The notes beneath the pieces are model-generated. The model was not told the origin of the DNA. It was given only the letters and a program-made list of their open reading frames with translations, and did no database searches. From a phage, in the sequence record PZ445417.1: 44,550 bases of DNA. One strand, 5' to 3'. A program made the translations under genes and the position numbers. Of this stretch, positions 2,918-21,071 are shown piece after piece (the first letter of the stretch is position 1; the number at the start of each line of letters is the position of its first letter).

Positions 2918-4004
2918 TCAATATATGGCGGACCGCATGATCCGCCGTCACATCTTCACCCAGCGCCTGAGCAATGACCAGGCGCGGAGGGTGTTGGCTA
3001 TGTGGGAGAAGTTCCGGCCCACGTTACTGGGTAAGCTGACCGAGTTACTTGATGGCAAAAAGTCCATGAACAACAAGGCACTTACCACTTTGTTAGCGCA
3101 ACTTGACAAGACCGTTAAAACAGAACTGCGCACCGAGTTTAAGGCGTTGGCTGAAAGCCTTCAGGAGTTCGCCGACACGGAGGCTGATTATCTCACCGAC
3201 ACATTAACGGCAGCGATCCAGCCGGTGGTCGCCGTACCGGCGGTCGAGGTGGTTGGCGTAGTGACCGGTGCGCAGATCGCAGCGACGGCAATGAAAAACC
3301 CGTTCCTGGGTAATACGATGATGCAATGGCCTGACTCACTTTCTGAGTGGACAAGGACGCAGATCGGCAATCAGGTGCGCGCCGGATTCATCCAGGGCAA
3401 GCCAACGACGGAAATTATCGCGGACGTGAGGCGCGCGCTAGGTGGTCGTAGTGCGCAAGCCATCTCAAGCGTTGTTAAGTCCGCAGTCAACCACTATGCG
3501 GCGACCGCCCGCGAACTAATGGTAAAAGCAAATGACGATATTCTCGAAGGTCGCCAATGGTTATCTACATTGGACACGCATACTTCTCCCATGTGCCAGC
3601 TACGCGATCGCCTGTTTTATCCGGTTGATGCTACTCCCGACACCAAAGGAAAGCGCGGCGGGAAAGTGGTGGCGGGATCACAATATGGCGCTGGTCCGGG
3701 CAAGCTACATTATTGCTGCCGTTCGACTGAGACGTGGAAAGTCAAAGGTATGGAAGACTGGCCCAGTGGTAAGCGTCCGGCACTGAAGGCTGACGCGGGT
3801 CGGTTGCTGAGTGAGCAGGCGGACGCGCAGACTGATTTCTTCTCATGGGTGCAGCGCCAGCCGCGCCATATCCTGGAAGAATTATACGGGGTGCAACGCG
3901 CCGACCAGATTATGCGCGGTGTGAAAGTGCCTAAGATGTTCACCGACACCGGCGAACTAATGACTATTGCACAGCTTAAAAACCGGGGGTTGTGGCGTGA
4001 TTAA
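2901..4004 (+). CDS. head morphogenesis protein (Mu gpF / SPP1 gp7-like minor head protein)
   Basis: 367-aa ORF overlapping the portal 3' end. Assigned by position after portal and by overall resemblance recalled from memory, not by search. Confidence 0.55.
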   Translation: MARTINQYMADRMIRRHIFTQRLSNDQARRVLAMWEKFRPTLLGKLTELLDGKKSMNNKALTTLLAQLDKTVKTELRTEFKALAESLQEFADTEADYLTDTLTAAIQPVVAVPAVEVVGVVTGAQIAATAMKNPFLGNTMMQWPDSLSEWTRTQIGNQVRAGFIQGKPTTEIIADVRRALGGRSAQAISSVVKSAVNHYAATARELMVKANDDILEGRQWLSTLDTHTSPMCQLRDRLFYPVDATPDTKGKRGGKVVAGSQYGAGPGKLHYCCRSTETWKVKGMEDWPSGKRPALKADAGRLLSEQADAQTDFFSWVQRQPRHILEELYGVQRADQIMRGVKVPKMFTDTGELMTIAQLKNRGLWRD

Positions 4005-4305
4005 GTATGCAGCGATTGGGTTGGTAATAGGTCTGGCGGTTGGATTCTGGCAGGGTAATTCCTACCGCGCGGGCGTTGTGGCGAGAGCGGCGCAAGAAGC
4101 GCAAGCCGAAGCCCAACGGCAGCAAACTAAAGTTATTGAGCGCTCCGCGCAGGCCGAACAAGCCCGCGATGTGGAATACCGGACTATCACGAAAGAGGTT
4201 GTGAAATATGTTACGCGTCCTAACCGTCCTGATTGTAGTTTTGATGCTGAGCGCGTGCGGATCAAGCAAAGCGCCATCGACGCCGCTAACCGAGTCGGTC
4301 TATAG
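3997..4305 (+). CDS. Rz: Rz-like i-spanin
   Basis: GTG start with GGGGG RBS. N-terminal TM segment YAAIGLVIGLAVGFW followed by an A/Q/E/R-rich coiled-coil region. Contains the embedded Rz1 ORF in another frame. Confidence 0.6.
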   Translation: MIKYAAIGLVIGLAVGFWQGNSYRAGVVARAAQEAQAEAQRQQTKVIERSAQAEQARDVEYRTITKEVVKYVTRPNRPDCSFDAERVRIKQSAIDAANRVGL

Positions 4306-4438
4306 GCCGCCTTGCACCTTTGAGAATGCCTCGGCAGACCCAGACGAAGACTTGCTGGTCGATGTTAAGAATATGGAATGTGGTGCGAAGCTGAGGGCGC
4401 AAGTGCTGGAGTTGCAGAAAATAATTCGGGGGCCGTGA
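4208..4438 (+). CDS. Rz1: Rz1-like o-spanin (outer-membrane lipoprotein)
   Basis: ATG with AAGAGG RBS. Signal peptide MLRVLTVLIVVLMLSAC with lipobox LSAC, proline-rich mature part. Starts inside Rz out of frame and runs past the Rz stop; its stop lies in the terminator hairpin. Confidence 0.6.
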   Translation: MLRVLTVLIVVLMLSACGSSKAPSTPLTESVYRPPCTFENASADPDEDLLVDVKNMECGAKLRAQVLELQKIIRGP

Positions 4439-4452
4439 AGGCCCCCTTTTTG
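4425..4452. terminator. rho-independent terminator, probably bidirectional
   Basis: GGGGGCC-gtgaa-GGCCCCC hairpin followed by TTTTTGTT on plus. It sits between convergent genes Rz1 (+) and 4453-5217 (-). Confidence 0.6.
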
Positions 4453-5217
4453 TTAGCGAGGAATACCGCAGATCTCGTTTAACGTCTTCACGTCCAGCGC
4501 CACCGCCGTGGACTTCGGCTTGTCAGGGTATGGAATGAACTGTTCCACTTCAGGCCACGCCTTGATCAGCTTCGTATCGGTATTGTGCATATCCAGCACG
4601 CCGGTAACGGTTAGTTTGAACGCGTCATACTTAGCTCGCAAATCGCGGCGGGCCTTGTCGTTACGGGCCAGTCGCTTACAGAAAGCATGATCTGCCGGGT
4701 AATCCACGCGACCGCGCGGAAGATATATCGGCAGCGCTTTCCCGTCCTCGTCCAATTCACACACTGACGCGAGCATCACTTCTTCGTATCCGGGTACAAT
4801 ATCGCCGAGGTCAGGCGCGAGCTTGTTCATGTATTTGATGTTCCAGTATCCGCGATGTGTGCGGTTTTGGTGTCCGTCGCCGCTCAATGACAAGGTGCGA
4901 ACATTACCGCCCGCGTTGATTTCGAATGTGGCGTCATAAACTCTTCCGATACCTTTCGGGTGGTCGGTGTTATTGCGATACGTCGCGAGGTTGGTGTAGA
5001 CGTGGACGCTGTACATGGGCGACTTGGCACCGTCTAGTGCTGCGATGTGTGTGCGTAACTCGGCGAAAGTGCGAATGCCTTTTGGCATACAGTCCAGCGT
5101 AATGGCGTACGCCAGGTCGCGAGAGTCCATCATGATTGATTTGGCTTCGGTAGCGATTTCATGGTCGCGCAGGATGTTAGCCAGAATCTGGTTTTTAATG
5201 TCTTTCGTCAGTCTCAT
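4453..5217 (-). CDS. hypothetical protein (254 aa), minus-strand insert in the head gene block
   Basis: Long ORF. Preferred start is the ATG at 5217 (MRLTKD...) with a GAGGA RBS; the track start at 5262 lacks one. Own upstream promoter-like motifs and a downstream hairpin. No recognisable motif. Confidence 0.6.
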   Translation of the reverse strand: MRLTKDIKNQILANILRDHEIATEAKSIMMDSRDLAYAITLDCMPKGIRTFAELRTHIAALDGAKSPMYSVHVYTNLATYRNNTDHPKGIGRVYDATFEINAGGNVRTLSLSGDGHQNRTHRGYWNIKYMNKLAPDLGDIVPGYEEVMLASVCELDEDGKALPIYLPRGRVDYPADHAFCKRLARNDKARRDLRAKYDAFKLTVTGVLDMHNTDTKLIKAWPEVEQFIPYPDKPKSTAVALDVKTLNEICGIPR

Positions 5218-5239
5218 TTGTGTGTCCTCGTTGTTGGTG

Positions 5240-5279
5240 TGCAACCAATATATTGCAACCAATACGCAGATTGCAAGCG
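5240..5279 (-). promoter_or_regulatory. promoter-like region with tandem ATTGGTTGCA motifs
   Basis: On the minus strand: TTGCAA, 18 bp, TATATT, with two ATTGGTTGCA copies, immediately upstream of the RBS of 4453-5217. The leader ATATTGGTTGCACACCAACAA is almost identical to the one at 39388-39410. Confidence 0.45.
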
Positions 5280-5366
5280 AATTTTGCGATTATTTTTATC
5301 GCTGATAATATTAGAAGCGTGAAGTCGAGCGGGTGGCCTGCTCTGCCACAATCCCAGGGGGATAGC

Positions 5367-6071
5367 ATGAAACTTACTAAAGCAGAATATGACGCGTTGC
5401 CGGAAGGTATGAAGGCGCTTTTTGTTGCCGATGGTGACGGGTATAAATCAACGTTCATGACCGCAGAAGAAGTACAGGCGGAAATCAAGGGTCTGAAAGA
5501 CAACAACGCTAAGCTGGTGAGCGAGAAGAAAGCAGAAGCCGAACGCCGCGCCGAAGCCGAGCGCCTTGCGAAAGAGAAAGAGGAAGCCGCCGCGCGCAAA
5601 AATGGCGACCTCGAAGCGATCGATAAGTCCTGGAAGGATAAGTTTGCGAAACACGAAGCAGACACATCGGGAAAAATCGAAGCCTACCGCAAGCAGATCC
5701 ACGACCTAACCATCGGCAGCGCTGCCAAAGACCTGGCCTCGAAGCTGTTCGGTAAGAATGCTGGGATCATGCAACGCCACGTAATGGACCGCCTGACGCT
5801 GGAAGACGGAGAAGACGGCAGCTTGAAAGTGCGTGTCTTGCAGGATGGCAAACCGTCCGCGCTGACGATGGAAGAGCTTGAAAAAGAGTTCCGTCATAAC
5901 GCCGATTTTGCATCCGTCCTGGCTGGCACGCCAGCCGGTGGCGCGCCTAGCAAACCGACGCAGGTTGTCGAAGATGTGAAGTCGAAAATCACTATGGGCC
6001 ATAGCTTCGGTATCACTGACCTTACAAAACAGGCGGGGGATATCATCGCGAAGATGGGCGACGACGAGTAA
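5367..6071 (+). CDS. putative scaffolding protein
   Basis: 234 aa from the ATG at 5367 (RBS GGGGGA). Charged helical region AEAERRAEAERLAKEKEEAAARK. Lies immediately upstream of the major capsid gene. Confidence 0.5.
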   Translation: MKLTKAEYDALPEGMKALFVADGDGYKSTFMTAEEVQAEIKGLKDNNAKLVSEKKAEAERRAEAERLAKEKEEAAARKNGDLEAIDKSWKDKFAKHEADTSGKIEAYRKQIHDLTIGSAAKDLASKLFGKNAGIMQRHVMDRLTLEDGEDGSLKVRVLQDGKPSALTMEELEKEFRHNADFASVLAGTPAGGAPSKPTQVVEDVKSKITMGHSFGITDLTKQAGDIIAKMGDDE

Positions 6072-6075
6072 GCAG

Positions 6076-6100
6076 ATTGCCCGCGAAAGCGGGCAATTTT
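6076..6100 (+). terminator. hairpin with short U-tract (possible attenuator)
   Basis: ATTGCCCGC-gaaa-GCGGGCAAT stem followed by TTTT, between the scaffold and capsid genes. Confidence 0.4.
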
Positions 6101-6168
6101 GCGAGCGCGGAAATCTAAGGTAACATTAACGTCACTGGGCGAATGCTCACAACTCAAAGGATTTCGAT

Positions 6169-7269
6169 ATGTCTTTAACAGTGTTCCAGCGTAAACTCGT
6201 TACCGCGGTTACGCAAATGATCCCCGACAACCTGAACGTTTTCAACGCCGCCGCCAATGGCGCTGTTGTTCTTGGTACGGGTGAAGTGCTGAAGGATGTT
6301 GTAGAGAAAATGTCCGTAGGCTTGATCGCCAACCTTGTTACCGACCGTAACGCCTACGCCCCGGTCGGCACTCCGGCAACCGCTAAAGTGCTGGCGCGTA
6401 TGCTGACCAACTCGGTTAACCTTTCCGCGAAAGTGGGTCCGGTGGCAATCACTAAGGCTATGATGGCTAAGATCGAAACCAACGTTAACAGCGTTGCGGC
6501 TGAGATTGCGGCGCAGGCCACTCAAGCGATTTTGTTGCACTACCTGAAAGCGGGTATCGGTGCGGGTAAAGCGGCGATCGAAAGCAACGCAGCGGCAAAA
6601 TACACCCAACCGGCGCGCGTTGACGGCGTTGGCGGTCGTACCTTCCCGACCCTGGCAGACTTCCCGCTGGCGGCTTCTAAGTTCGGCGATCAGGCGTCTT
6701 TGATTAAATCCTGGTTTATGGACGGCGTTACCTGGGCAAACTTTATTGCATACCAGGCGCTCCCGTCTGCCGAGCAGGTATTCGCAATTGGCGATCTCCA
6801 GGTAATGGGAGATGGCCTGGGCCGTCGCTTCATTATCTCCGATGCCGCTGCCGATGCTATGGGTGCTGGTAACATGCTGGGCCTGGTCCCTGGCGCGGTT
6901 GCAGTTACCACCAACGGCCTTGATATGCTGGCGCAGGAGAAAGGCGGTAACGAGAACATCGAGCGCTGGTGGCAGGGCGAGTTCGACTTCAACGTGGCTG
7001 TTAAAGGCTATCGTCTGAAGGCGTCCGCTCGTACCCCGATCGAAGGCGTCCGCTCGTTCAAACTGGACGATATTACCACTTCCGCTAACTGGGAACTGGA
7101 CCAGGGCCAGGTAGACAACGCACCGGCAACCGTTCAGGATGTTGGCGCTGTGGGTGATGGCGATACTAAAGGTCGTCGTAAGACCCAGGCTGCACAGGCA
7201 GTGCCTACCCGTCACATCAAGGAAACCGCTGGCGTACTGGTTACGCTGACTGCTACCACAGCGTCTTAA
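6169..7269 (+). CDS. major capsid protein
   Basis: 366-aa ORF, ATG with AAAGGA RBS, after the scaffold gene and followed by a strong terminator. Composition typical of major capsid proteins. Confidence 0.7.
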   Translation: MSLTVFQRKLVTAVTQMIPDNLNVFNAAANGAVVLGTGEVLKDVVEKMSVGLIANLVTDRNAYAPVGTPATAKVLARMLTNSVNLSAKVGPVAITKAMMAKIETNVNSVAAEIAAQATQAILLHYLKAGIGAGKAAIESNAAAKYTQPARVDGVGGRTFPTLADFPLAASKFGDQASLIKSWFMDGVTWANFIAYQALPSAEQVFAIGDLQVMGDGLGRRFIISDAAADAMGAGNMLGLVPGAVAVTTNGLDMLAQEKGGNENIERWWQGEFDFNVAVKGYRLKASARTPIEGVRSFKLDDITTSANWELDQGQVDNAPATVQDVGAVGDGDTKGRRKTQAAQAVPTRHIKETAGVLVTLTATTAS

Positions 7270-7287
7270 TCGACGCACATCCCAAAT

Positions 7288-7314
7288 GGGCGGGCTTATG
7301 CCCGCCTTTTTTTT
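7288..7314 (+). terminator. rho-independent terminator
   Basis: GGCGGGC-ttat-GCCCGCC hairpin followed by T8. Confidence 0.7.
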
Positions 7315-7329
7315 ATAGGAGTGAATATA

Positions 7330-7830
7330 ATGTATGGCGACCCGCAAACCTTTGTCGATTATGCCGCTGCGCGAGGCGTTGAAATTACGCTAGGCGATGC
7401 AACGCAACACCTCACCATCGTTAATGACTTCCTTAACGGCATCAACTGGATCGGCGAACCCGCAGACCCGACTGGCGTCGACGCATGGCCCCGCATCAAC
7501 TACCCATCGGACGGTAAGCCGGTGCGCGACACGCTTACTGAAGTTGTGGCGGTAGTGCCTGCCGGGCAAATCGTAGACTTTGCATCAATCCCCGTCGCCG
7601 TTGAGCAGGCCGTTTACCGGCTGGCGCTGTTGGTGGCGGACGAGATCGATATTTCTCCGGTCGGCGATGGTAAAGAGACTATCCGCGAAACGGTTGGCCC
7701 GATCACGATGGAATACGACCCGGCGTCGATTGGTAGCGGGGTATCGTTCCCGTGGTGGGATGGCTTGTTAGGGCACTGGGTTGATTCTGGCGGCAACGCC
7801 GTAGGCAATTTCGACGTATTCAGGGGGTAA
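7330..7830 (+). CDS. putative head-tail adaptor / head completion protein
   Basis: 166 aa from the ATG at 7330 (AGGAG RBS). Position between capsid and tail genes; function inferred from synteny only. Confidence 0.4.
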   Translation: MYGDPQTFVDYAAARGVEITLGDATQHLTIVNDFLNGINWIGEPADPTGVDAWPRINYPSDGKPVRDTLTEVVAVVPAGQIVDFASIPVAVEQAVYRLALLVADEIDISPVGDGKETIRETVGPITMEYDPASIGSGVSFPWWDGLLGHWVDSGGNAVGNFDVFRG

Positions 7831-7831
7831 T

Positions 7832-7951
7832 ATGAATCCTGCATTACTCGCGGCGATTATCGCCGCCAACACTAAACAGCCACCGGAACAAGAACCGGAG
7901 CCAGAACCAGTACCACCGGCACAGGAGAGCGAAGACGATGGCGGGCTTTAA
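7832..7951 (+). CDS. small hypothetical protein (39 aa, Pro/Glu-rich)
   Basis: ATG with AGGGGG RBS. Fills the gap between neighbouring genes and overlaps the next start. Not in the ORF track because it is under 60 aa. Confidence 0.3.
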   Translation: MNPALLAAIIAANTKQPPEQEPEPEPVPPAQESEDDGGL

Positions 7952-8291
7952 TTACGCAGGATTAAAGCGGAAAGTGAATCCGCTGATTAAAAAATTCGGC
8001 ATGACCGTTAAGGTTACGCGTCCGGGATCGGTTGACCGTGTAGACGGCGACGAAGTGGTAATCCCGCCAACGTCGTTTGACGTCATCGGTCTTCGCGAGG
8101 AGTACAAGCCTAGCGAGATCGACGGAACGCGTATCGTTGCCGGTGATGTGAAGTTTTTATGTCGGGCGGTTGAGCAATTGCGGGTGGGCGACCTGGTTAA
8201 CCTGAACGGCACTGACTTCCGGGTCGTCAACCCTAACCCACTGCAACCGGCGGGCACTACCATGCTGTTTCAACTACAGCTAAGGGGCTAA
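7938..8291 (+). CDS. putative head-tail joining protein
   Basis: 117 aa, ATG with AGGAGA RBS. Assigned by synteny in the connector region. Confidence 0.4.
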   Translation: MAGFNYAGLKRKVNPLIKKFGMTVKVTRPGSVDRVDGDEVVIPPTSFDVIGLREEYKPSEIDGTRIVAGDVKFLCRAVEQLRVGDLVNLNGTDFRVVNPNPLQPAGTTMLFQLQLRG

Positions 8292-8292
8292 C

Positions 8293-8886
8293 GTGGCTGA
8301 AGTCTACTCATTCGCCGCCACTATTGCTACGTGGGTGGATACGACGAAGGAGAACAACGACAAGGCGGTGCGGGCGTACGGTATGCAAATACTCGGACGC
8401 CTTATTGAGATCTCCCCGGTAGGCGACCCACGCCGGTGGAAGATTAACAAGGCCTACGCGCTTGCACGCGAACACGCGAACAAGGTGAACGCCGCACAGC
8501 GCCGCAAGAATGGCGGCAAACTGAAGCGCGGGCAGAAGAAGCACGCCAGTGTGCTCATCTCATTCAAAACTAAAAACGGCAACGTCACGTTCCGCCAGCG
8601 TGGCTGGGCGGCGAAGAATTACACCGGCGGACGCTTCCGGGGAAACTGGCAGGTTACGTTCGACCGTCCGGCTGTAGGCGCTATCGACCGCGTGGACAAG
8701 GCCGGAACGGCAACATTAGCCGCAGGGCGTGAAGTGCTGGCGCATTATGATTCTGGCGAATATGGGTCGATCTGGTTTACGAACAATGTGCCGTACGCGC
8801 AGCGACTGGAGTATGGCTGGAGTAAACAAGCGCCTGCGGGTATTGTTCGCGTCGTAGCGGCAGAAATTAATTCGAAGGTGAAATAA
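8293..8886 (+). CDS. putative neck / tail completion protein
   Basis: 197 aa with a probable GTG start after AAGGGG. Assigned by synteny. Confidence 0.4.
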   Translation: MAEVYSFAATIATWVDTTKENNDKAVRAYGMQILGRLIEISPVGDPRRWKINKAYALAREHANKVNAAQRRKNGGKLKRGQKKHASVLISFKTKNGNVTFRQRGWAAKNYTGGRFRGNWQVTFDRPAVGAIDRVDKAGTATLAAGREVLAHYDSGEYGSIWFTNNVPYAQRLEYGWSKQAPAGIVRVVAAEINSKVK

Positions 8887-9308
8887 TGAGCAATACTCTA
8901 ATCCGCAAGGCGCTTAACAGCGTAGTTGAAGAATTAGCGGTGAGCCTGAGCACTAATCCGCGTCCGATCCAGGTTAACTGGGAGAACGTGAGCGGAGACC
9001 ACGCAAACGGCAGCGGTGTCTATCTGGAACCGTACCTGCTTCCGGCCCCGACCCAGTTTGTGGGCTTCCAGCAGAAGGGCCGGATCTATGCAGGTGTCTA
9101 TCAGGTTGCTGTGGTATTTCCTGCGGGCACGGGCACACAGTATGCGAGTGAGCTGGCGGACGCCATCGCGACGTCTGACAAGTGGCAGGCCGTAAGGCTT
9201 ACTGGCGCTTCATTCCAGCTTCAGGACGCGCCCTACACCAGTTCGGTGATTGAGGATGTTGATCGTGCCCGCATCGTGGTCACAGTCCCCTACACCTGTT
9301 GCGCCTGA
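8886..9308 (+). CDS. putative tail terminator protein
   Basis: 140 aa, ATG overlapping the previous stop. Lies immediately upstream of the major tail gene. Confidence 0.4.
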   Translation: MSNTLIRKALNSVVEELAVSLSTNPRPIQVNWENVSGDHANGSGVYLEPYLLPAPTQFVGFQQKGRIYAGVYQVAVVFPAGTGTQYASELADAIATSDKWQAVRLTGASFQLQDAPYTSSVIEDVDRARIVVTVPYTCCA

Positions 9309-9368
9309 TTTGGCGCAATTCTATGCGTGCGGTATCATTAATCCGTATATCTAAACAGGAGCGTCATT

Positions 9369-10094
9369 ATGGGTTATCAACTTCCTAACGGGTCCAGCGT
9401 CCAGATTGGGTCCGTACTGGGCAGCGGCATCGCTGTTACGGCAGCTACCAACGCCGCCGCGTCTATCTCTGATCTTACGCAAGGTTGCGTTATCACCTGC
9501 GCGGCTTCTCATGGCCTGCAAGTCGGCGATGTGGTAATGTTCACTAAAACTCCGTGGGTCCGTGCGCTGAACCGAGCGTTCATCGTGGGTAAAGTGGATA
9601 CCAACGACGTTACGCTGGCGCGCTTCGACACCTCGGACGTGACCAAATATCCTACCGGCGCGTTTAGTGTAGGCACTCCGGGCGAAGTGGTGAAGGTGTC
9701 GAGCTTTATCGACTTCCCTTTCATTACTAACGTTGCCGTGTCTGGTGGCGACCAGCAGACTACTACCTTCCAGCCGTTGCAGGTGAACACCGCGATCAGT
9801 CTGAACACCACGAAAAACCCGTTGGTACAGACTTACACTTTCACCCACGACGAAGAAGACCCGATCCGCCCAATCCTGGAAGACCTGGACGACACACAGA
9901 AAACCACTGTGATTAAGTTCACTAACCCAGCGGCAGCAAGCGGCAAAGGTGAAATCCGTATTTACCCGGCTAAGGTATCTTTCCAGAAGATTCCGTCCGC
10001 AGAAGTAAACAACGTGGAAACGGTGCAATCCACTCTGACCATGCAGTCTGATATGGTTATCTACCGTAAGGATCTGGTCGAGGCATTGTCTTGA
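9369..10094 (+). CDS. major tail (tube) protein
   Basis: 241 aa, CAGGAG RBS. Followed by a strong terminator and then the chaperone gene with a frameshift site, which is the usual major tail / chaperone / tape measure order. Confidence 0.65.
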   Translation: MGYQLPNGSSVQIGSVLGSGIAVTAATNAAASISDLTQGCVITCAASHGLQVGDVVMFTKTPWVRALNRAFIVGKVDTNDVTLARFDTSDVTKYPTGAFSVGTPGEVVKVSSFIDFPFITNVAVSGGDQQTTTFQPLQVNTAISLNTTKNPLVQTYTFTHDEEDPIRPILEDLDDTQKTTVIKFTNPAAASGKGEIRIYPAKVSFQKIPSAEVNNVETVQSTLTMQSDMVIYRKDLVEALS

Positions 10095-10123
10095 TTTGGT
10101 CGCTTAAATAGCGAGTGATAATA

Positions 10124-10149
10124 TGGGGCCAGCACGGCCCCTTTTTTAT
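10124..10149 (+). terminator. rho-independent terminator
   Basis: GGGGCC-agcac-GGCCCC hairpin followed by TTTTTTATT. Confidence 0.7.
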
Positions 10150-10163
10150 TGGAGAATACTACA

Positions 10164-10526
10164 ATGGCTAAAGCACCACTCTTTACACTTGACCCTAAGC
10201 CTACATTTAAGCTGCCGATTGAGATTCCGCGCCCTGGTGAGAACGAGCCGGGTAAGATGACTTTCACCGTTCGCCACCGCCCGATCGACGAATTTTCGCA
10301 AACCATGCAGGACACCGAACGGAAGCTGTCGGAATACGACGACAATGACCCAGACGGCTTTAACGTTATGGTCGAGGCCATCATGCACGTCGCTGAGGGC
10401 TGGAATCTGCCGGACGAATTTAACGCGGAGAACGTCCGCCGCCTGGTGGTCAACTACCCACGCGCGTTCGGTGTGTTCCACACCTCGTACTATCTCGAAC
10501 TGATGGGATTGCGTGAAAAAAACTAA
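10164..10526 (+). CDS. tail assembly chaperone (lambda gpG-like)
   Basis: 120 aa from the ATG at 10164 (GGAGAA RBS). Ends LREKN* with the slippery heptamer A_AAA_AAC spanning the last codons. Confidence 0.65.
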   Translation: MAKAPLFTLDPKPTFKLPIEIPRPGENEPGKMTFTVRHRPIDEFSQTMQDTERKLSEYDDNDPDGFNVMVEAIMHVAEGWNLPDEFNAENVRRLVVNYPRAFGVFHTSYYLELMGLREKN

Positions 10527-10840
10527 TTGAGGCGGCGCGACGCTTTTATGGCCCGCCGCCACCCTCCGAAGATTTAGCCGCGAGTTTATGGGGTGCGGCC
10601 CCCGAAGATGTTTGTCCGCCTGTTGCGCTATGGCCCGACAACGCGAAGGTAGTCGCAGTCTTCACAGATTGCTCCACGCAATGGCGCACCGGATTTGGTG
10701 GCGCATACGGCATCGACTACGGCGTGTTGGAGTGGTTATTTAAGATGCACGGCATCGAAAACGAGCAGCGCGCGTTTAAAGATATTAAGCTAATGGAACG
10801 AATCGCGCTTGATGAAATGGCGCAGCAGAACCCCGCATAA
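10517..10840 (+). CDS. gpT-like extension of the tail chaperone, reached by -1 frameshift
   Basis: The -1 frame is open for 107 codons from the slippery site A_AAA_AAC (10517-10523) to the TAA at 10838-10840, with no in-frame ATG start; checked codon by codon. Confidence 0.55.
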   Translation, partial: KKLIEAARRFYGPPPPSEDLAASLWGAAPEDVCPPVALWPDNAKVVAVFTDCSTQWRTGFGGAYGIDYGVLEWLFKMHGIENEQRAFKDIKLMERIALDEMAQQNPA

Positions 10841-10842
10841 TG

Positions 10843-11157
10843 AAGCGGGGCAGATCGGGACGTCCCGTTTTGTCCCGCCTTTGCAAAACTGCATACCTAC
10901 TCACTTCCACTGCATAATCTAAAAGCGGGACAAGCGGGACGTCCCGATCTGCCCCGCCCTGTAAATGTGCATACCTATTCATATTTCATGCATAAACCAA
11001 ACGGGACAGAAAGCGGGACAAACATGGGGCGGGACAAAGCGGGACAGCACCCCGTCCCCGCCAGTGCTGCCGCGGGTTTTAGCCGATCGGGACAGGCGGG
11101 ACAAAGCCCAGTCTTTCAGACTAGACGGGGGTCAGTGGCCCCCCTCGTCTGAGACTG
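10843..11157. repeat. non-coding repeat element, copy 1 (inverted repeats, CGGGACA iterons, conserved long hairpin)
   Basis: Inverted arms GCGGGGCAGATCGGGACGTCCCG (10845-10867) and CGGGACGTCCCGATCTGCCCCGC (10935-10957); at least 8 CGGGACA copies; imperfect ~19-bp hairpin at 11109-11157. The distal ~160 bp is about 80% identical to 39047-39204. Confidence 0.7.
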
Positions 11158-11225
11158 CATAAGGTTTGTTTTAAAATCGCTGATACAATATCAATCGGCA
11201 ACTGCATAAAAAAGGGGACTGCATA

Positions 11226-13868
11226 ATGGCAGATCAGGCAGCAGGCATCACGCTAAAGGCGGATGTCGCACAAATCAGAACGGCAAATACTGTGCTGGAC
11301 TCCTTCGCACAGAAATCCGAGAACACAGAAAACAAGGTTAAGAAATTAAACGACACCCTCGGCAAATCCAAAAAGGTGACGAGTGACGCCGCGGGTGGAA
11401 TGGAGAAGCTGGCGACTGAATCGCAGCGTGCCGCCGACGGCATGACGAAACAAGAGCGACTTGCCAACCGGTTAGGCATGTCGACCAAAAACCTGGGCTT
11501 TGCCTCGCGTAACGCCGCATTCCAGTTACAGGATATCGCAGTTACGCTTGAGATGGGGATGCCGGTGCACCGCGTCATGCTTCAGCAGTTACCGCAGCTA
11601 ACTGGGGCGTTCGGTGGATTTGGTAACACGCTGCGTTATGTTGCGGGCTTCCTCGGTCCGGTAGGGATCGGCATTGCAGCACTAACGGCAACGTTAGGCG
11701 TAGGAGTGGCGGTTACGTCCCGTGCCGAAAACCAGGTCGCAGCGCTTAACAAGACGCTGGCGCTGTCAGGTAACATTTCCGGCCTCACTGCAAACCAGAT
11801 CCTGGTGCTATCCGAGAACGCCGAGCGCATGGGGGGGTCATTCAGTAAGACGCGTGACACAATCCAGGCACTGGCGGCGGCGGGGGTGAAAGCGGGCGCT
11901 GACTTCGGCGCGCTTGCGAAGGTTGTGAATGACTTCGCGAAGGCGTCTAATCAGCCGATCGCGGACGTGGTGGGGTCTATCGCTAAATTATCCAACGACC
12001 CGGTTGGCGGACTGCGCGCACTGGCGGACCAGTACCACGTCGTTACCGAGGCGCAGATCCAGCAGGTGCAATCGCTTGTAAATATGGGGCGTGAAACGGA
12101 CGCGGTGGCTATGGCTAACAAAACCGCCGCGGCGTCGTTCGCCAGCATGACCAACGATGTCAAGGCCAACATGGGTACGCTTGAGCGGTCGATGAACGTC
12201 GTCACATCGGCAGCTAAATCAATGTGGGATGCCATCCTGGATGTTGGGCGCGCGCAGTCCTCGAATGAGTCCGAGATGAAAGCGCGTGAATCCTTGCAGC
12301 GCATGACCACGGCGTACTATGCCGAGATGAAGGCGGTAAACGCTGCCGGTGGGGTGATGACCGAAGCGCAGAAAGCGCGTATTAACATGCTTTACAGCGA
12401 ACTGGTCGCCCAGGAAAAGGTAGTGGCGTCGCTCACCCTGCGCAACCGTGCCGAGCGAGACAGCGCCAGCGCCGCGGATGAAGCAGCAAAGGCGAACGAG
12501 GAGGCAAACCGCACCGCCCGCGACCGCGCCGCGTTTGAGAAGGAGTACGCGACCAACGCAAAGCGGCGATCCGACGAGATCGCCCGCCTCAATTTGCTGA
12601 ATAAGCGCGGTGTTATTAACGAGAAAGAACTAGCCGAGGCGGTGAAGCAGGTCAACGAACGTTACAAAGACCCCGCCCAGAAGAAGGCCGCCGCTGTTCG
12701 AGTCGATGCCGGGCTGAAAATGCTGGAAGTCGCGCGAAGCGAATTAGCCCAGCTTCGTGAGTCTGGAAAGCAGATCGAAGCCAACGCATCGACGCAGACC
12801 CGCACGCAACGCGCGCAAGCGGCCCTTAACAAGCTGGTGGCGGATCATGAACAGTTAATCGCGGCGAGCAAAGAAAGGGCACTGACGGCGGCAGAAAAGC
12901 AGCAAATGGCGGAGTTCGAGTCGGTTAAATCTGTACGCGAGCAGATCGTAGAAGAAGCCAAATTGCTGGACGCGAAAGAGAAGCAGATCAAGGCACACGC
13001 CCAGGTCGAGGCTTTCATCAAGAACCAGAACGCCGAGCTAAAAGCCACCGCGGCGGGCTATGCGCTTTCTACTCGCGAAGCGGCTAACCTGCGCGAAGAG
13101 TTGCAGCTAATTGACCGTCTTCAGCGTGCCGGTGCTAACGATACTGATATTGACAAGGCGGTGTCTAAGCTGCGTGAGGTTCAGGAAGCACAGACCGGTG
13201 CTAACGCCTCATTATGGGATGGATTCAGTCGCGGGCTTCGCGATAGTGTGGATGAAATGGGTAACGGATACACGCAGATGGCGTCACTCACAAAATTCAC
13301 GTTCGGCGCTATGCAGGACACGATGAACGAGTTTTTCGAGACTGGCAAGCTGAACGCAAAGGATATGGTTAAGTCCATCCTGAGCGAATTAATCAAGCTG
13401 GCTACCTCGCAGGCGTTCAAGTCCATCGTTAGCGCTTTCGGTGGCGACGGCGGCAAAAACGGATTGTTCGGCGCTATCTTCTCTGGCCTCACTAAGAATG
13501 CAGACGGCGGAGCGTACACCGGAGGCAATCTCGCGGCCTATTCGGGGCAAGTGGTAAGCCAGCCCACTTTTTTCAGTTATGGCGTCCAGGCGTTCGCTAA
13601 GGGCGCAGGATTGATGGGGGAGGCGGGACCCGAGGCCATCATGCCGCTTAAGCGCGGGCCAGACGGTAAACTAGGCGTCGCCGCTGCCGGTGGGGTCGGT
13701 GGGATGATTGTAACGACCAACGTTAACATGGGGACCGGTAAGACGGATACCAGTGTTAGCGGACCGGACCCGCGCACCGCGCAGGCGTTCGGAAAGCAAA
13801 TCACCGAGTCGGTCAAGGCCGAGATCGTGAAGGCGACGAAACCGGGTGGTGTACTTTACAAACGATGA
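11226..13868 (+). CDS. tail tape measure protein
   Basis: 880 aa, AAGGGGA RBS. Long Ala/Gln/Glu-rich helical protein with a Gly-rich C-terminal part, located between the chaperone and tail tip genes. Confidence 0.85.
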   Translation: MADQAAGITLKADVAQIRTANTVLDSFAQKSENTENKVKKLNDTLGKSKKVTSDAAGGMEKLATESQRAADGMTKQERLANRLGMSTKNLGFASRNAAFQLQDIAVTLEMGMPVHRVMLQQLPQLTGAFGGFGNTLRYVAGFLGPVGIGIAALTATLGVGVAVTSRAENQVAALNKTLALSGNISGLTANQILVLSENAERMGGSFSKTRDTIQALAAAGVKAGADFGALAKVVNDFAKASNQPIADVVGSIAKLSNDPVGGLRALADQYHVVTEAQIQQVQSLVNMGRETDAVAMANKTAAASFASMTNDVKANMGTLERSMNVVTSAAKSMWDAILDVGRAQSSNESEMKARESLQRMTTAYYAEMKAVNAAGGVMTEAQKARINMLYSELVAQEKVVASLTLRNRAERDSASAADEAAKANEEANRTARDRAAFEKEYATNAKRRSDEIARLNLLNKRGVINEKELAEAVKQVNERYKDPAQKKAAAVRVDAGLKMLEVARSELAQLRESGKQIEANASTQTRTQRAQAALNKLVADHEQLIAASKERALTAAEKQQMAEFESVKSVREQIVEEAKLLDAKEKQIKAHAQVEAFIKNQNAELKATAAGYALSTREAANLREELQLIDRLQRAGANDTDIDKAVSKLREVQEAQTGANASLWDGFSRGLRDSVDEMGNGYTQMASLTKFTFGAMQDTMNEFFETGKLNAKDMVKSILSELIKLATSQAFKSIVSAFGGDGGKNGLFGAIFSGLTKNADGGAYTGGNLAAYSGQVVSQPTFFSYGVQAFAKGAGLMGEAGPEAIMPLKRGPDGKLGVAAAGGVGGMIVTTNVNMGTGKTDTSVSGPDPRTAQAFGKQITESVKAEIVKATKPGGVLYKR

Positions 13869-13903
13869 TAAAATGGCCCTCACTACAACGTGGGGGCTTT
13901 TTT

Positions 13904-14503
13904 ATGTCACAAGGTACAATTACACTAACTAAGGGAAGTAAGACCGTCACGGGCGCGGGAACGGCGTTCTTGAGCGAGATCGGGAAGGTACGCGTGTTCG
14001 CCCGCATCGACGGCAACGACTACACCGGAAAAATTGCGGCATTCAACTCTAACACCGTCATTACCCTGGCGGATAACTGGGCCGGGCCGACAAAAGCCGG
14101 TGCGGCCTATGAGCTAATCGAAGCGCATGACCCGCGATCAAACGAATGGCCCTATTACTGGCACATGCAATTGCAAGGCGGCGGAGACGTGCAGCTGGCT
14201 TTCCGGTCCGAGGAATTGCAATTCGGTAACGGTTACGGTCAGAACATCGCGGACGGCCCGAACGCCGAAACGAAACAGTTCCCCGTGCAATTCATCGGAC
14301 TGACTACTGACAAGTGGTGCAACCCTAAACTGGTTTACAACTTCCTTCGCGGGCACTTCGTCAAACCGTTTGTTGTCACCGCGCCGGATGGCGAAACAGG
14401 TTTATTCGTGGTTGAGCGTTCGAGCTTGTCGTACACTGACAACGGGCACTACACGGCAACGGTATCCGCCACCCTTAAGACTGCTATTGGATTCGTAAGA
14501 TGA
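13904..14503 (+). CDS. minor tail protein (lambda gpM position)
   Basis: 199 aa from the ATG at 13904 (GGGGG RBS), after a hairpin plus T6 that follows the tape measure stop. N-terminal ~70 aa resemble the N-terminus of the tail fibre at 21387. Confidence 0.5.
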   Translation: MSQGTITLTKGSKTVTGAGTAFLSEIGKVRVFARIDGNDYTGKIAAFNSNTVITLADNWAGPTKAGAAYELIEAHDPRSNEWPYYWHMQLQGGGDVQLAFRSEELQFGNGYGQNIADGPNAETKQFPVQFIGLTTDKWCNPKLVYNFLRGHFVKPFVVTAPDGETGLFVVERSSLSYTDNGHYTATVSATLKTAIGFVR

Positions 14504-15288
14504 ATAAACTTTATCACGAGGCGACGCGCTTTGACCCATCGGGACGCGTTCGCCTGATTCACATTGACGCGCAGGACGTGGAGCCTGGCGACGGCGCGAT
14601 CGGCGCGGGCCACCATTATTTTCACTACTGCTTTATTCCGCACACTGCCGAAGATATTGCTGCCGCTGGCGGAGACGAGGACAAGCTAAAGCCCAAATCT
14701 ATCTTCTTCGGCGGGCAGGAGTTCGAATTTTGGCCCTTCGATCTGTCCGGCCTTAACTTCTCTACATCAACGGCAGCAGAACCGCAGCTAACCATCGTTG
14801 ATATTGGCGGCATAATCACCCGTCTGTCGCTGAATCACGACCAGCTACTGGGCGCGAAGGTTGAGATCATTGATACGTTCGCGAAGTTCCTGGATAACGG
14901 GTCGGATCCAGACCCGACGCAAAAACGTGTCCAGGAGTATTACATAGACTCACAGGTCGGGCGCAATCCAGGCAAGCAGATCACCTTCGCACTATCCTCC
15001 CCCGCGGATATGGAAGGGCAGGTCGTCCCGCGTCGCCAAATCATGAACATGTGCGAATGGGCGTTAAATGGGAAGTACGCCAGCGGGGACGGTTGCACAT
15101 GGAACCTTGCACGGCCTGGCATCAAGTATTACGACGAGCGTGGAAACGAAGTTATCGCAATGAATATGGACCGCTGCGGCGGATGCTTGTCCGACTGCTA
15201 TCTTCGTTTTGGACAAGGGCTTGCGGACCCTAAAGCTGCGGTGCTGGACTTCGGCGGTTTTCCGGGGTCCAAATTAATTAAGGGGTAG
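14500..15288 (+). CDS. minor tail protein L-like
   Basis: 262 aa. Cysteine cluster C-x-W...C-T-W...C-G-G-C-x-x-x-C near the C-terminus, reminiscent of the lambda gpL Fe-S site. Synteny M-L-K-I-J. Confidence 0.7.
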   Translation: MNKLYHEATRFDPSGRVRLIHIDAQDVEPGDGAIGAGHHYFHYCFIPHTAEDIAAAGGDEDKLKPKSIFFGGQEFEFWPFDLSGLNFSTSTAAEPQLTIVDIGGIITRLSLNHDQLLGAKVEIIDTFAKFLDNGSDPDPTQKRVQEYYIDSQVGRNPGKQITFALSSPADMEGQVVPRRQIMNMCEWALNGKYASGDGCTWNLARPGIKYYDERGNEVIAMNMDRCGGCLSDCYLRFGQGLADPKAAVLDFGGFPGSKLIKG

Positions 15289-15290
15289 CC

Positions 15291-16031
15291 ATGCTAACGA
15301 AAAAGGTAAAAAGCGATATCGCCGCACATGTCGCGGCATGTCTGCCGGAAGAAGCCTGCGGCCTGGTCGTCATGGTGGGCCGTAAGCAAGTATTCGTCCC
15401 GTGCCTTAACGTGTTTGAAGACCCGACCGGCGTGCGCTCACGCAAAGACGCTTTCACGATTAGTGATATGGCCTGGATGGATGCCGAGGATATGGGCGAC
15501 GTCGTGCGCGTAGTCCACTCGCACCCAGGTCAGCGAGATCTAACCCCGTCGTTGGGCGACGTTAACGGATGCAACGGCAGCGGCGTCGTCTGGACCATCA
15601 CTAACGAATATGGCGACTTTATCGAGATCGACCCAGAAGACCCGCCGCTGGTAGGTCGCCGATTTGTTCTCGGAATTACGGACTGTTACGGCCTCGTTAT
15701 GGACTGGCATAAAAAGCAGGGCGTAAACCTGCCAGACTTCCGTGTACCGTACAACTGGTGGGAGACAGGCGAAAACCTGTATATGGACAATTGGTATGGC
15801 GCGGGCTTCCGGGAGTGTGAGGAGAATACGCCGGGGGCGATGGTCATCATGCAGATTAGCGCGCCAGTGCCTAACCATGCCGGAATCTTCCTTCCGGGCA
15901 ACCAACTTCTACACCATATCTACGGCAGCCTGTCGAGCGTGATTCCCTTCCGGGCAGGATTTTTCCGCGACAATGTGGTTAAATGGGTACGTCATAAAGA
16001 CCTACCGGGGAATATCACAGAATGGCAATGA
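15291..16031 (+). CDS. tail assembly protein K-like (JAB/MPN plus NlpC/P60)
   Basis: 246 aa. JAMM-like VHSHPG motif in the N-terminal half and a Cys/His-containing C-terminal half. Synteny. Confidence 0.7.
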   Translation: MLTKKVKSDIAAHVAACLPEEACGLVVMVGRKQVFVPCLNVFEDPTGVRSRKDAFTISDMAWMDAEDMGDVVRVVHSHPGQRDLTPSLGDVNGCNGSGVVWTITNEYGDFIEIDPEDPPLVGRRFVLGITDCYGLVMDWHKKQGVNLPDFRVPYNWWETGENLYMDNWYGAGFRECEENTPGAMVIMQISAPVPNHAGIFLPGNQLLHHIYGSLSSVIPFRAGFFRDNVVKWVRHKDLPGNITEWQ

Positions 16032-16636
16032 CCACGTTTAAATTGTACGGCGTCTTAGGACGTCGTTTCGGTAAAGTGCATAAGCTGGACTGCTTCACAC
16101 CGGGCGAGGGTATCACCGGCCTGTGCGTGAAGTTACCCGGCTTACAGGACTTTCTAATGTCGGCCCACCTGGACAACATGATGTTCAAAGTGCGCAAGGG
16201 CAATCACACCCTGACCGGCTACGATGAGCTGGGCGAGTTCCACGGCAATCGCGTTGTTACCATCGCACCGGTTATGACCGGTGCAAAGCGCGGACTAGGC
16301 CAATTACTGGCTGGCGTAGCCATCGTGGTGGCGTCGTTCTACACCGGCGGGCTTGCTACTGCCGCTTTTGGTGCTTCAGCCGCTACCGCTGCCGCTATTG
16401 GTACGGCAACGTTTTCGTTCGGGATGTCGATGGCGCTGGGTGGCGTTATGCAATTGCTGTCACCGCAGCCGAAAGGATTGCAAACACGGCAGGACGTGGA
16501 TAACAAGGCGTCGTATGCGTTCGGAGGGCCGGTAAACACGACCGCGCAGGGTACGGCACTTGGTGTATTATGGGGCGAGCGTGAGATCGGTGGCGCTATT
16601 ATTTCCGCCGGAATCGTAACCGAGGATTTGAACTAA
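16022..16636 (+). CDS. tail assembly protein I-like
   Basis: 204 aa, with a C-terminal Gly/Ala-rich hydrophobic segment. Lies between the K-like and J-like genes. Confidence 0.6.
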   Translation: MAMTTFKLYGVLGRRFGKVHKLDCFTPGEGITGLCVKLPGLQDFLMSAHLDNMMFKVRKGNHTLTGYDELGEFHGNRVVTIAPVMTGAKRGLGQLLAGVAIVVASFYTGGLATAAFGASAATAAAIGTATFSFGMSMALGGVMQLLSPQPKGLQTRQDVDNKASYAFGGPVNTTAQGTALGVLWGEREIGGAIISAGIVTEDLN

Positions 16637-19600: not shown

Positions 19601-20055
19601 CTTCGTTTAACCATGCAGGTGGTAACGCCACGTACAGCCTTAAGGCGGGCGTGACGTATAACGGGACTTACTATGATGCTGGTATGCAGCTTTCCGTCGT
19701 GGCGGAAGGTGGCGCGGTTAAATCCCGCATCGCGTTCAAGGCGGACCAGTTTTACATCATGCACCCGTCGAATGGGTCGCTTACGTCCGCGTTTATCGTT
19801 GACGGGGGGCAGGTGTACATTGACACGGCACGCATCAAGGATGCGACTATCAACTTCGCGCAGATCACGGACACGCTTCAGTCGAATAACTACGACGGCA
19901 GCACGCGCGGATGGCGCTTAGGGAAAGACGGAACGTTTATCAACCTGGGAACCGGCAACGGCGGCGCGATGAAACAGACGAACACGCAAATCAGCGTCAG
20001 GGATGGAAACGGCGTTCTCCGCGTGCAGATTGGTGAAATCACGGGTAGTTGGTAG
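16636..20055 (+). CDS. central tail fibre / host specificity protein (lambda gpJ-like)
   Basis: 1139 aa; the ATG overlaps the previous stop (TAATG). Largest ORF of the tail module. Domain content (fibronectin III-like repeats) is recalled, not searched. Confidence 0.8.
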   Translation: MTIIYDVTGHKGGGGKQHTPQETPDSLHSQAKARILLALGEGEFEGIPSNSELRQRVYLDGTPIQNSDRSENFPGARVEFRPGTQHQNVIHGFSAVESEQSVGVKLENGKPWVRQINDTSLDAVRIRIGIPALYTNEDNGDLVGGRVNYKIVVYTDNANPREFKFAAVGKTMSLYERDHRIELPSNVNTGWRVEVHRTTADSTSAKVVNDIQVQSITEIIDARLRYPLTALLFVEFDAKAFQNIPRVSIKCKGRKVLIPNNYDPINHTYSGDWDGTFKRAWTDNPAWHWYDICITERFGLGRRIKPQMLNRYALYQIAQRCDQLVSDGNGGREIRFKNDMYIQSQTDAWTVLKDLAAIFAGMTWWGNQMLNIVSDQPVAAVSHTITNASVIDGRFDYASGSQKTRYSTFAVAYGNPKNHYDDAIATGQRVELVRRHKINRLDITAIGCTRESEAQRRGHWALISNQLDQQVSFKVGMEGLFFIPGSVVAIADTNISGGFETRGGRLLSDPGTRTVLNTDSEITFRPGDKFLVRTDSGNVETREIASVNGNKVTLKTALDSDPIPDQPFCVDGDDIQLQKFRITDLEYDDSTSTFSVRGIEYNDSKYDAVDNGARLDPGIFTQVPDGVMKGPESVTITPSQISSQGQLITNVDIVFPPVKDAVVYEIQWRRTSLQNMAIQWGNDWVNIPRTASNGAHIPNVFSGNYQARVRAIGMGEISSPWVSSAITPVEGRLGGLNAPIITNAISGLHQILWKWNHNNAATDISYTELEVRKTGETEWEFLTNVPYPGSEYAQTSLEFGIYQQLRARVADKIGNLSDWSAPFEGQVSDEVDEYMKGLDDAFLTSEDGKHFQEAIDTMPQGIYEAMLTDAQQLFNARAEYKGIYAEIKVAYNVAVDANEAVAQLETLIGTRLDDAEASIHTLQTAQSTHEQAFAQYQQTVAAKFGEQEAAIQQVQTATADVAGALAEYKTQVAAQFDQQSAAIEQKMTSSFNHAGGNATYSLKAGVTYNGTYYDAGMQLSVVAEGGAVKSRIAFKADQFYIMHPSNGSLTSAFIVDGGQVYIDTARIKDATINFAQITDTLQSNNYDGSTRGWRLGKDGTFINLGTGNGGAMKQTNTQISVRDGNGVLRVQIGEITGSW

Positions 20056-20065
20056 CATAGGGGCT

Positions 20066-20090
20066 TCGGCCCCTTTCTTTTGGAGGTAAT
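20066..20090 (+). terminator. rho-independent terminator
   Basis: AGGGGC-ttcg-GCCCCT hairpin followed by TTCTTTT. Confidence 0.55.
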
Positions 20091-20092
20091 GC

Positions 20093-20395
20093 ATGGCTTT
20101 TGGAGTAGAAACATGGGACGCGCAAGGGCGTCCGAACAACTACGGGATCAAGCCGGTGTCGGTTGTCGGAATTATTAAACTTGCACAAGGTCAAACATCG
20201 GGGTCGTGGTCGTTCACTATCCCGTCAGGGATGAAAGTCGGTTTTGCGGTTACGCTTGACGTGGGAGGCACTACTGTCGGTCGGGCTATCCGCGCCCGCG
20301 GGAACACAATAACCGTGTCGGCGGCAAACAGCGTGGGTATCGGTAACTACCCCGCGTCCGCGTGCGAGGTAGTAGTTTTTGTGGAGAAAGCATAG
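20093..20395 (+). CDS. hypothetical protein (100 aa), probably tail-associated
   Basis: ATG with GGAGG RBS, immediately after the J-like gene. Confidence 0.5.
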   Translation: MAFGVETWDAQGRPNNYGIKPVSVVGIIKLAQGQTSGSWSFTIPSGMKVGFAVTLDVGGTTVGRAIRARGNTITVSAANSVGIGNYPASACEVVVFVEKA

Positions 20396-20397
20396 AA

Positions 20398-21069: not shown

Positions 21070-21071
21070 AA

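Follow-up and report, generated by a model that had tools for sequence, protein, structure and literature searches.

The phage sequence PZ445417.1 (44,550 nucleotides; "the window" means the whole of this stretch) represents a complete or nearly complete genome of a Dhillonvirus, an HK578-like virulent siphophage of Escherichia coli. The gene at 4453-5217, which runs antisense to the neighboring head genes, is, by its profile matches and its locus, nmad5 of the Dhillonvirus coliphages, a gene already known both as a catalogued family and as a genetically studied locus. We propose, tentatively, that the Nmad5 protein of this phage is a stand-alone, non-enzymatic early protein that would bind a partner, or act as an adaptor, through its C-terminal module, and that the Lys216 to Glu substitution (K216E), by which related phages escape the defense system Tmn, would represent an altered function. 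What is new in the present analysis is the genome-wide 10-nucleotide motif ATTGGTTGCA that is found in the nmad5 promoter, the early-left position of the gene in temperate relatives, a predicted fold that has no solved relative, the missing partner enzymes for modification, and the location of Lys216 in the most constrained module of the protein. The gene and the parts of it that bear on function are the following.

4453-5217, minus strand: nmad5 coding sequence (CDS), 254 amino acids, ATG at 5217, stop codon TAA at 4453-4455, from the list of open reading frames (ORFs) and the Pfam and PHROG matches.
4453-4689, minus strand: C-terminal module (residues 177-254), which contains Lys216 and is under the strongest constraint in the protein.
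4570-4572, minus strand: codon of Lys216 (coordinates computed from the ATG at 5217), the Tmn-escape residue (Lys to Glu) in the SM_A8 ortholog.

The encoded protein matches Pfam family PF18757 (Nmad5) over its full length (residues 1-253 on profile positions 1-206), with a score of 176.1 bits against a curated gathering cut-off of 27 (E value 1.3e-51), and it also matches PHROG 1965 (E 1e-58). PF18757 and PHROG 1965 are described as "Nucleotide modification associated domain 5," the NCBI name is "Nmad5 family putative nucleotide modification protein," and the label is already present on this gene in the related GenBank records SECphi18 (gp24), BF9, and UDS3lw, so that the term "unknown" used in a preliminary description of this DNA does not apply. 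That description also took the 254-residue antisense frame between the spanin pair and the scaffold gene to be a gene, and this is borne out: the Pfam match, together with a ratio of nonsynonymous to synonymous substitution rates (dN/dS) of 0.21 across nine sequences, indicates a real gene and not a chance frame. A longer version starting at a TTG at 5262 is unlikely because the N terminus that is conserved throughout the family, M1-R2-L3-T4, aligns exactly at the ATG at 5217. SECphi18 is 92.7% identical to the window over 3900-6200, a region that is matched by 157 phage records. Neither PADLOC nor NCBIfam gave matches for the window protein or for a lambdoid homolog.

Previously, nmad5 was studied in the Dhillonviruses SM_A8 (CDS7) and SMS22 (CDS6) by Yamashita et al. 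(2025, Commun Biol; PMC11846954). Mutants of both phages that escape Tmn carry K216E in nmad5 (K296E in SMS22 numbering), and reversion of the substitution restored sensitivity, whereas deletion of nmad5 gave viable phage that did not escape; cloning of the gene failed, apparently because of toxicity (PMC11846954). The SM_A8 gene (5047-5811, minus strand, two genes before the scaffold gene) is likewise 765 nucleotides long, encodes 254 residues, and, as in the window, lies antisense next to the scaffold and capsid genes. The two proteins are 85% identical, and all 254 of 254 residues align without gaps, with Lys216 aligned; the window gene is therefore a direct ortholog of the published gene and of the Tmn-escape determinant that it represents. 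PMC11846954 names Nmad5 a "DNA modification enzyme" whose product is sensed by Tmn, but this label is without support from anything in the present genome. Adjacency does not link nmad5 to the anti-Tmn gene, which is ORF35, nmad5 being CDS6 or CDS7. The preliminary description had mentioned host takeover, anti-defense, and exclusion as typical functions for a gene with this layout; a tie to defense does exist, through the escape substitution in the SM_A8 ortholog and the toxicity on cloning, but there is no evidence that nmad5 is itself an anti-defense or exclusion factor.

A 2026 preprint (PMC13001434) reports that the cytosolic arms of Tmn directly recognize T2 RIIB, a phage protein, and that binding and activation of Tmn are separable. 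RIIB is expressed early, and its escape alleles include nonsense mutations, so that loss of the protein gives escape (PMC13001434). The nmad5 gene resembles that of RIIB in being a site where Tmn-escape mutations arise and, according to the promoter and synteny evidence discussed below, in being expressed early, but it differs in that escape results only from the Lys to Glu substitution and not from deletion. Because of this difference between deletion and substitution, K216E would more likely reflect an altered function, for example as a decoy or through a changed interaction, than the removal of a DNA mark or a trigger; it is unlikely that K216E works simply by removing the trigger.

Lys216 belongs to the most constrained part of the protein. 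Residue conservation was taken from 114 sequences (113 homologs plus the window protein), and the signatures of the family are all present in the window protein: the N-terminal R-L-T..I, a GG, Gly104, Thr213/Leu217/Trp221-Pro222-Glu223, Leu246-Asn247, and the C-terminal G-[LI]-P. Thr213, Leu217, Trp221, Pro222, Glu223, Leu246, and Asn247 are near-invariant across the family, and Lys216 lies in its most conserved motif, T213-x-x-K216-L217-x-x-x-W221-P222-E223. Only one pair of residues looks catalytic, Asp176-His177, and no more than 50-60% of members conserve it. The dN/dS is 0.05-0.09 over residues 176-254, and there are no amino acid changes in residues 221-250 among eight closer Dhillonvirus sequences. 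A homolog with only 39% overall identity has exactly the same last 18 residues, and the codons for them differ at about 11 synonymous sites; together with the unrelated downstream DNA, this rules out recombination as the source of the identical tail and shows that the constraint acts on the protein. The center of the protein evolves fastest, with a windowed dN/dS peak of about 0.5, which corresponds to relaxation and rules out diversifying (positive) selection. Compared with a typical PF18757 member, the window protein is about 50 residues longer and has two lineage-specific, faster-evolving insertions at approximately 75-92 and 116-160.

An AlphaFold2 model of the window protein, generated from a 119-sequence alignment, has a predicted local distance difference test score (pLDDT) of 90.4 and a predicted template modeling score (pTM) of 0.83. 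It consists of an N-terminal helical hairpin, a third helix, a small β-sheet, a long helix, and three or four short C-terminal helices, and the model of a lambdoid member (pLDDT 91.6) has the same topology and order of secondary structure elements. A Foldseek search of BFVD matched only other Nmad5 proteins (E 1e-28 to 8e-6), so that the fold is common to the members of the family. The fold search found no solved relative; a PDB sequence search gave no match, and a profile search gave only E values of 0.31 (a weak capsid match) and 0.64, which are noise. The match to a structural or assembly protein that would have spoken against an accessory role did not appear, significant hits being absent from the Pfam, PDB sequence, and fold searches.

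The early timing proposed for Nmad5 derives in part from the region upstream of the gene, which contains the following elements.

5225-5229, minus strand: Shine-Dalgarno sequence GAGGA, 7 nucleotides 5' of the ATG, invariant in eight Dhillonviruses.
5240-5249 and 5254-5263, minus strand: two direct copies of ATTGGTTGCA, 14 nucleotides apart, invariant in the same eight phages.
5247-5276, minus strand: predicted sigma70-like promoter, with -35 hexamer TTGCAA at 5271-5276, an 18-nucleotide spacer, and -10 hexamer TATATT at 5247-5252.

The good ribosome-binding site and the tandem promoter-like element of the preliminary description thus correspond to the GAGGA sequence and to the two copies of ATTGGTTGCA, which sit within the predicted promoter. 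This is the sole sigma70-like match in 3900-5800, where 1.4 would be expected, and the match is therefore not significant alone. In the eight Dhillonviruses the -10 hexamer is invariant, as is TTGCA in the -35 hexamer; the final -35 base differs in LM40P1, one of the eight, whose Nmad5 protein is only 63% identical, and across the eight the promoter region is conserved more strongly than the gene. The tandem element is not private to nmad5. When one mismatch is allowed, the window contains 20 sites for ATTGGTTGCA (10 exact and 10 with one mismatch), compared with 3.5 ± 2.3 in shuffled sequences, and none of 100 shuffles reached 20. The sites lie in these regions.

5240-5263, 21361-21370, 24725-24746, 26398-26441, 29362-29383, and 36083-36092: ATTGGTTGCA sites.
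38899-38997, 39270-39279, 39361-39401, 39925-39934, and 42532-42564: further ATTGGTTGCA sites.
5218-5240, 39402-39422, and 42564-42586: copies of a shared 5' leader, described below.

The scan found no sites in 5264-21360, the head-tail block. The majority of the sites are intergenic and 5' of non-structural genes, among them a DUF6378 gene, a block of ligase-like, Dam, and phosphatase genes, an SNF2 block, helix-turn-helix (HTH) and primase-helicase genes, several small genes near 39 kb, and a cor-like gene. The site at 39392 is followed by the leader TATATTGGTTGCACACCAACAA(C)GAGGA...ATG, which is almost identical to that of nmad5, and the gene at 39423 (a 101-residue ORF) is preceded by a near-identical copy of the nmad5 promoter and leader. 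The leader ACCAA(C/T)(C)AACAA(C)GAGGA is common to three genes: nmad5, the 101-residue ORF, and a small ORF at 42587. The latter (42587-42667, about 26 residues, MARNDIWVLAIWSAAAFIGMVICELL) is unannotated, looks hydrophobic and membrane-like, has a strong Shine-Dalgarno sequence (AAGAGGAG), and follows a terminator-like hairpin and an inverted motif pair between the endolysin region and a metallophosphatase gene.

Some copies of ATTGGTTGCA are tandem repeats with a spacing of 12-35 bp, two form a palindrome (24725/24737), and at 42532/42555 a pair is inverted relative to the downstream gene. With these several arrangements, the motif resembles a phage regulator's operator that overlaps sigma70 promoters more than it does a directional promoter hexamer. 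The sequence at 24725-24746, between the DUF6378 gene and a HAD-phosphatase-like gene, is a near-perfect palindrome, TGCAACCAAC-CT-ATTGGTTGCA, which suggests binding by a dimeric regulator. At 26398-26441, upstream of the ligase-like gene 25879-26343, there are three copies at an exact spacing of 17 bp (ATTGGTTGCATAATCAT twice, then the third), one of which gives a TTGCAT -35 hexamer 17 nucleotides before a TATATT -10 hexamer. The ORF at 36283-36612, which resembles HTH and sigma-70 region 4 proteins, is a candidate for the regulator. A literature search on the 10-mer returned only unrelated primer sequences and found, in the literature consulted, no description of a regulon. The motif probably marks the operators or promoters of an early/middle regulon, and, because the nmad5 promoter carries a motif common to non-structural units and the gene has an early-left position in temperate relatives, we infer that nmad5 is transcribed early or in the middle period, in co-regulation with the non-structural genes and not with the head genes.

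The contexts of nmad5 in other phages are consistent with this timing. A profile search of 1.84 billion representative proteins identified 360 members of the family, which reportedly was named by Iyer et al. in 2013 for an association with modification genes. The members are single-domain proteins of 180-254 residues, typically about 200 (~207), and none of 124 aligned proteins has extra domains or fusions. In the lambdoid phage mEp235 and in a Stx1 phage, nmad5 directly follows N and precedes cIII; in Klebsiella prophages no gene is called between cI and nmad5, and Kil comes after it; and in a Providencia prophage nmad5 is likewise the first gene after cI, with genes for a DUF2800 nuclease, an Enc34-type single-stranded DNA-binding protein (SSB), and PolA within two genes. 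The same DUF2800/Enc34-SSB/PolA replication module is present at 29830-34888 of the window. The Providencia prophage, from P. alcalifaciens (4257-12065 of the retrieved locus), has the order cI, nmad5, small genes, DUF2800 nuclease, Enc34-type SSB, PolA, followed by a CAP12-PCTIR TIR gene; in the Stx1 phage SH2026Stx1 (3959-6271 of the retrieved locus), an insertion sequence element with three transposase ORFs lies immediately downstream of nmad5, before cIII in the pL operon. In Vibrio phage D454, Dinoroseobacter phage R26L, C130_2, and a metagenomic phage (L002), nmad5 is located among small early or replication genes. What the sampled gene orders have in common is an early location, often promoter-proximal, beside genes of DNA metabolism, and in the temperate relatives nmad5 is by its position the first gene of the early-left operon. 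In the pL operon of lambda, the promoter-proximal accessory genes ral and sieB lie between N and cIII. The lambdoid nmad5 genes hold this slot, and nmad5 is likewise dispensable and interacts with host immunity, but the likeness is one of position alone, the genes being unrelated in sequence and structure. Unlike the lambdoid pL genes, nmad5 of this virulent phage is relocated to the head block, where it has a promoter of its own.

The mechanism that we tentatively favor is one in which Nmad5, made early, would act on a conserved partner from the DNA metabolism of the host or the phage. The protein, a long helical bundle with a small β-sheet and a C-terminal helical module, would be built for binding rather than for base modification, and contact with the partner would be made through the invariant C-terminal module that carries Lys216. 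The same surface would matter to Tmn, and the K216E protein would act positively, either as a non-activating decoy on the sensor arms of Tmn or by changing what the partner presents. That Nmad5 is non-enzymatic is suggested by the poor conservation of Asp176-His177, the single-domain organization of the family, the constraint on its tail at the protein level, and the direct sensing of RIIB by Tmn. It should be noted that several points weigh against this interpretation. A decoy is one of several readings that fit escape by a point mutant and not by a deletion, and catalysis is compatible with the lack of a PDB match. The timing is drawn from the shared motif and from synteny in other phages, and because the position and orientation of ATTGGTTGCA vary relative to the -35 and -10 hexamers, an operator of this kind could act at any time during infection. 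In addition, in the Rabinowitzvirinae (Yuavirus, the M6-like Pseudomonas phages, and Bordetella Vojvodinavirus), nmad5 lies inside a thymidine-hypermodification cassette, between the genes for aGPT-Pplase1 and a thymidylate-synthase-like hydroxymethylase, and in PTXU04 it directly follows a DNA methyltransferase gene.

The last two contexts are those expected if Nmad5 were an enzyme, or an obligatory auxiliary subunit, of DNA or nucleotide modification and if Tmn or other systems perceived the modification, an explanation that would also draw on the naming of the family, on the presence of two methyltransferases in the window (Dam and a member of phrog_757) and on the conserved polar residues Arg2, Thr4, Asn14, Asp176, His177, Glu223, and Asn247. 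We consider it unlikely. The Yuavirus and Vojvodinavirus proteins belong to the same family, with about 38-40% identity across the 85 C-terminal residues, but their genes are flanked by those for aGPT-Pplase1, a kinase, radical S-adenosylmethionine (radical-SAM) and pyridoxal phosphate (PLP) enzymes, and the hydroxymethylase. No hydroxymethylase, 5-hydroxymethyldeoxyuridine DNA kinase, aGPT-Pplase, radical-SAM, or PLP enzyme is present among the window ORFs scanned or in the SECphi18 annotation; the neighbors of nmad5 encode spanin, scaffold, and capsid proteins rather than modification enzymes, and both methyltransferase genes are about 20 kb away. Such partners are also missing from most of the sampled lineages (Dhillonvirus, lambdoid/Stx phages, Klebsiella and Providencia prophages, D454, R26L, C130_2, and L002), and because these other contexts consist of early and replication genes, the link with modification enzymes is, in the loci sampled, specific to one clade. 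The BASEL study found the Queuovirinae to be far more resistant to restriction than Dhillonvirus, which is thus comparatively sensitive (PMC8594841). The incomplete conservation of Asp176-His177, the lack of fold or sequence similarity to solved enzymes, and the unchanged Tmn sensitivity of the nmad5 deletion (PMC11846954) also argue against an enzyme. A second gene of the window, at 24185-24700 on the minus strand, corresponds to SECphi18 gp49, which is labeled "Nucleotide modification associated protein"; the window gene has matches to Pfam DUF6378 (E 1.3e-9) and to PHROGs named "phosphofructokinase," and lies beside the HAD-phosphatase-like gene and Dam.

An early DNA-binding or transcription regulator, with HTH-like C-terminal helices and possibly acting on the ATTGGTTGCA sites, would account for the promoter-proximal position beside N or cI in temperate relatives, the basic C-terminal third (isoelectric point about 9.0), and the consecutive short helices predicted at 214-220 and 222-227. 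Overproduced DNA-binding proteins are also commonly toxic. This role is nevertheless improbable, as Nmad5 has no Pfam HTH match and no structural match to DNA-binding folds, the dedicated HTH/sigma-70 region-4-like gene is a better candidate for the motif, and nmad5 can be deleted with viability kept (PMC11846954). A function in head assembly, as a structural or accessory protein, is hardly credible: it has in its favor only the position of the gene in the head block and its conservation there, whereas nmad5 is on the opposite strand with its own predicted promoter and terminator, its homologs elsewhere are in early operons far from structural genes, the searches gave no significant match to a structural protein, the deletion is viable (PMC11846954), and natural truncations occur in JL1 and SM_S24.

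The distribution of nmad5 supports its description as an accessory gene. It is present in full length at the same position in about 143 of 157 Dhillonvirus-type records (about 9 of 10), and a distant 45-kb siphophage (L005), whose protein is 38% identical, carries it antisense at the equivalent place, with spanin/head-morphogenesis genes on one side and the scaffold gene on the other. Its composition is native (GC content 53.5%, 65% at third codon positions; codon usage correlation 0.82 with the other genes compared), and this and its conservation in the genus rule out a recent horizontal insertion, so that the preliminary description of nmad5 as inserted does not hold. Conservation in all relatives, which that description regarded as evidence for a core head gene, is nearly found, yet the gene is dispensable and is not a head-module gene. 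JL1 has only a 74-residue remnant and SM_S24 a truncated gene of 184 residues. Its dN/dS exceeds the values for scaffold (0.06), capsid (0.075), and a head-morphogenesis gene (0.056) in the same nine sequences. By its selection profile and the plasticity of its slot, nmad5 is best described as a retained but dispensable accessory gene. As had been proposed, it forms an autonomous accessory ("moron-like") cassette, with a predicted promoter carrying a motif of non-structural genes, a hairpin, dispensability in the published deletion (PMC11846954), and a variable slot, with the caveat that its composition is native and that it is kept in most records. The antisense slot beside nmad5 is a small hot spot for gene gain in Dhillonviruses, with two further genes in the distant siphophage and the following additions elsewhere (coordinates in the retrieved loci).

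SM_W22, 1861-2379: unrelated orphan gene of 172 residues in the nmad5 slot.
SM_A8, 2353-2667: extra phrog_24635 gene upstream of nmad5.
SM_A2, 2317-2646: extra phrog_24635 gene upstream of nmad5.
JL1, 2632-2961: phrog_24635 gene accompanying the nmad5 remnant.
101114BS4, 2281-2835: RusA-like/clamp-like gene of 184 residues downstream of nmad5.

The phrog_24635 proteins have 104-109 residues. The 101114BS4 protein matches phrog_3007 ("RusA-like"), and its match to the central domain of DNA polymerase III β is weak and below the cut-offs. Phage records labeled Acinetobacter (NJ01, OQ221563.1), Campylobacter, Sodalis, and Salmonella also match this E. coli Dhillonvirus region, and the NJ01 Nmad5 protein is 87.4% identical to that of the window; the host labels of these records look doubtful, possibly as a result of contamination.

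The features that flank nmad5 are as follows.

3967-4305, plus strand: Rz.
4208-4438, plus strand: Rz1, convergent with nmad5.
4428-4446, both strands: GC-rich hairpin with 7 G-C pairs and a 5-nucleotide loop, common to Rz1 and nmad5, bidirectional and terminator-like.
5367-6071: scaffold gene, against which nmad5 points.
6169-7269: major capsid gene, beyond the scaffold gene.

The hairpin shared with Rz1 had previously been placed at 4425-4452 and is slightly narrower than this. It has a folding energy of -19.1 kcal/mol on the plus strand and -17 kcal/mol on the minus strand, overlaps the Rz1 stop codon, and is separated by 6 nucleotides from the nmad5 stop codon; of its two T-runs, the one on the plus strand (TTTTTGTT) is good, and the one for nmad5 (GAATTATTTT) is weaker. 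A putative promoter for the scaffold and capsid genes, TTGCGA-16-TAATAT (5284-5311, plus strand), is divergent from that of nmad5 and is followed by a GC hairpin in the 5' untranslated region of the scaffold gene (5323-5343, plus strand; GAGCGGGTGGCCTGCTC in the window and GAGCGGGTGGCCCGCTC in most relatives). Both are almost invariant in the eight Dhillonviruses, and the fold of the untranslated region is no better than that of shuffled sequences (z -0.75).

The function of Nmad5 bears on phage engineering because Dhillonviruses are common therapy-candidate coliphages and nmad5 is the locus through which they escape Tmn. The published interpretation of a modification enzyme sensed by Tmn rests only on the family name, and it should not be assumed, in view of the absent partner enzymes, the early-operon position, the lack of a solved relative of the fold, and the constrained C-terminal module that contains the escape residue; the labeling of Nmad5 as a modification enzyme is apparently a mislabeling. 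A more general proposal, possible but doubtful, is that the Nmad5 proteins are a widespread, mislabeled family with a new fold, non-enzymatic and encoded first in the early operon of many temperate and virulent phages of Proteobacteria, whose invariant C-terminal peptide (T..KL...WPE ... LN...GLP) would dock on a conserved host or replisome component for host takeover, that membrane nucleoside triphosphatase sensors such as Tmn would read, or be blocked through, the same surface, K216E being a dominant decoy, and that ATTGGTTGCA would mark an undescribed early regulon of Dhillonvirus.

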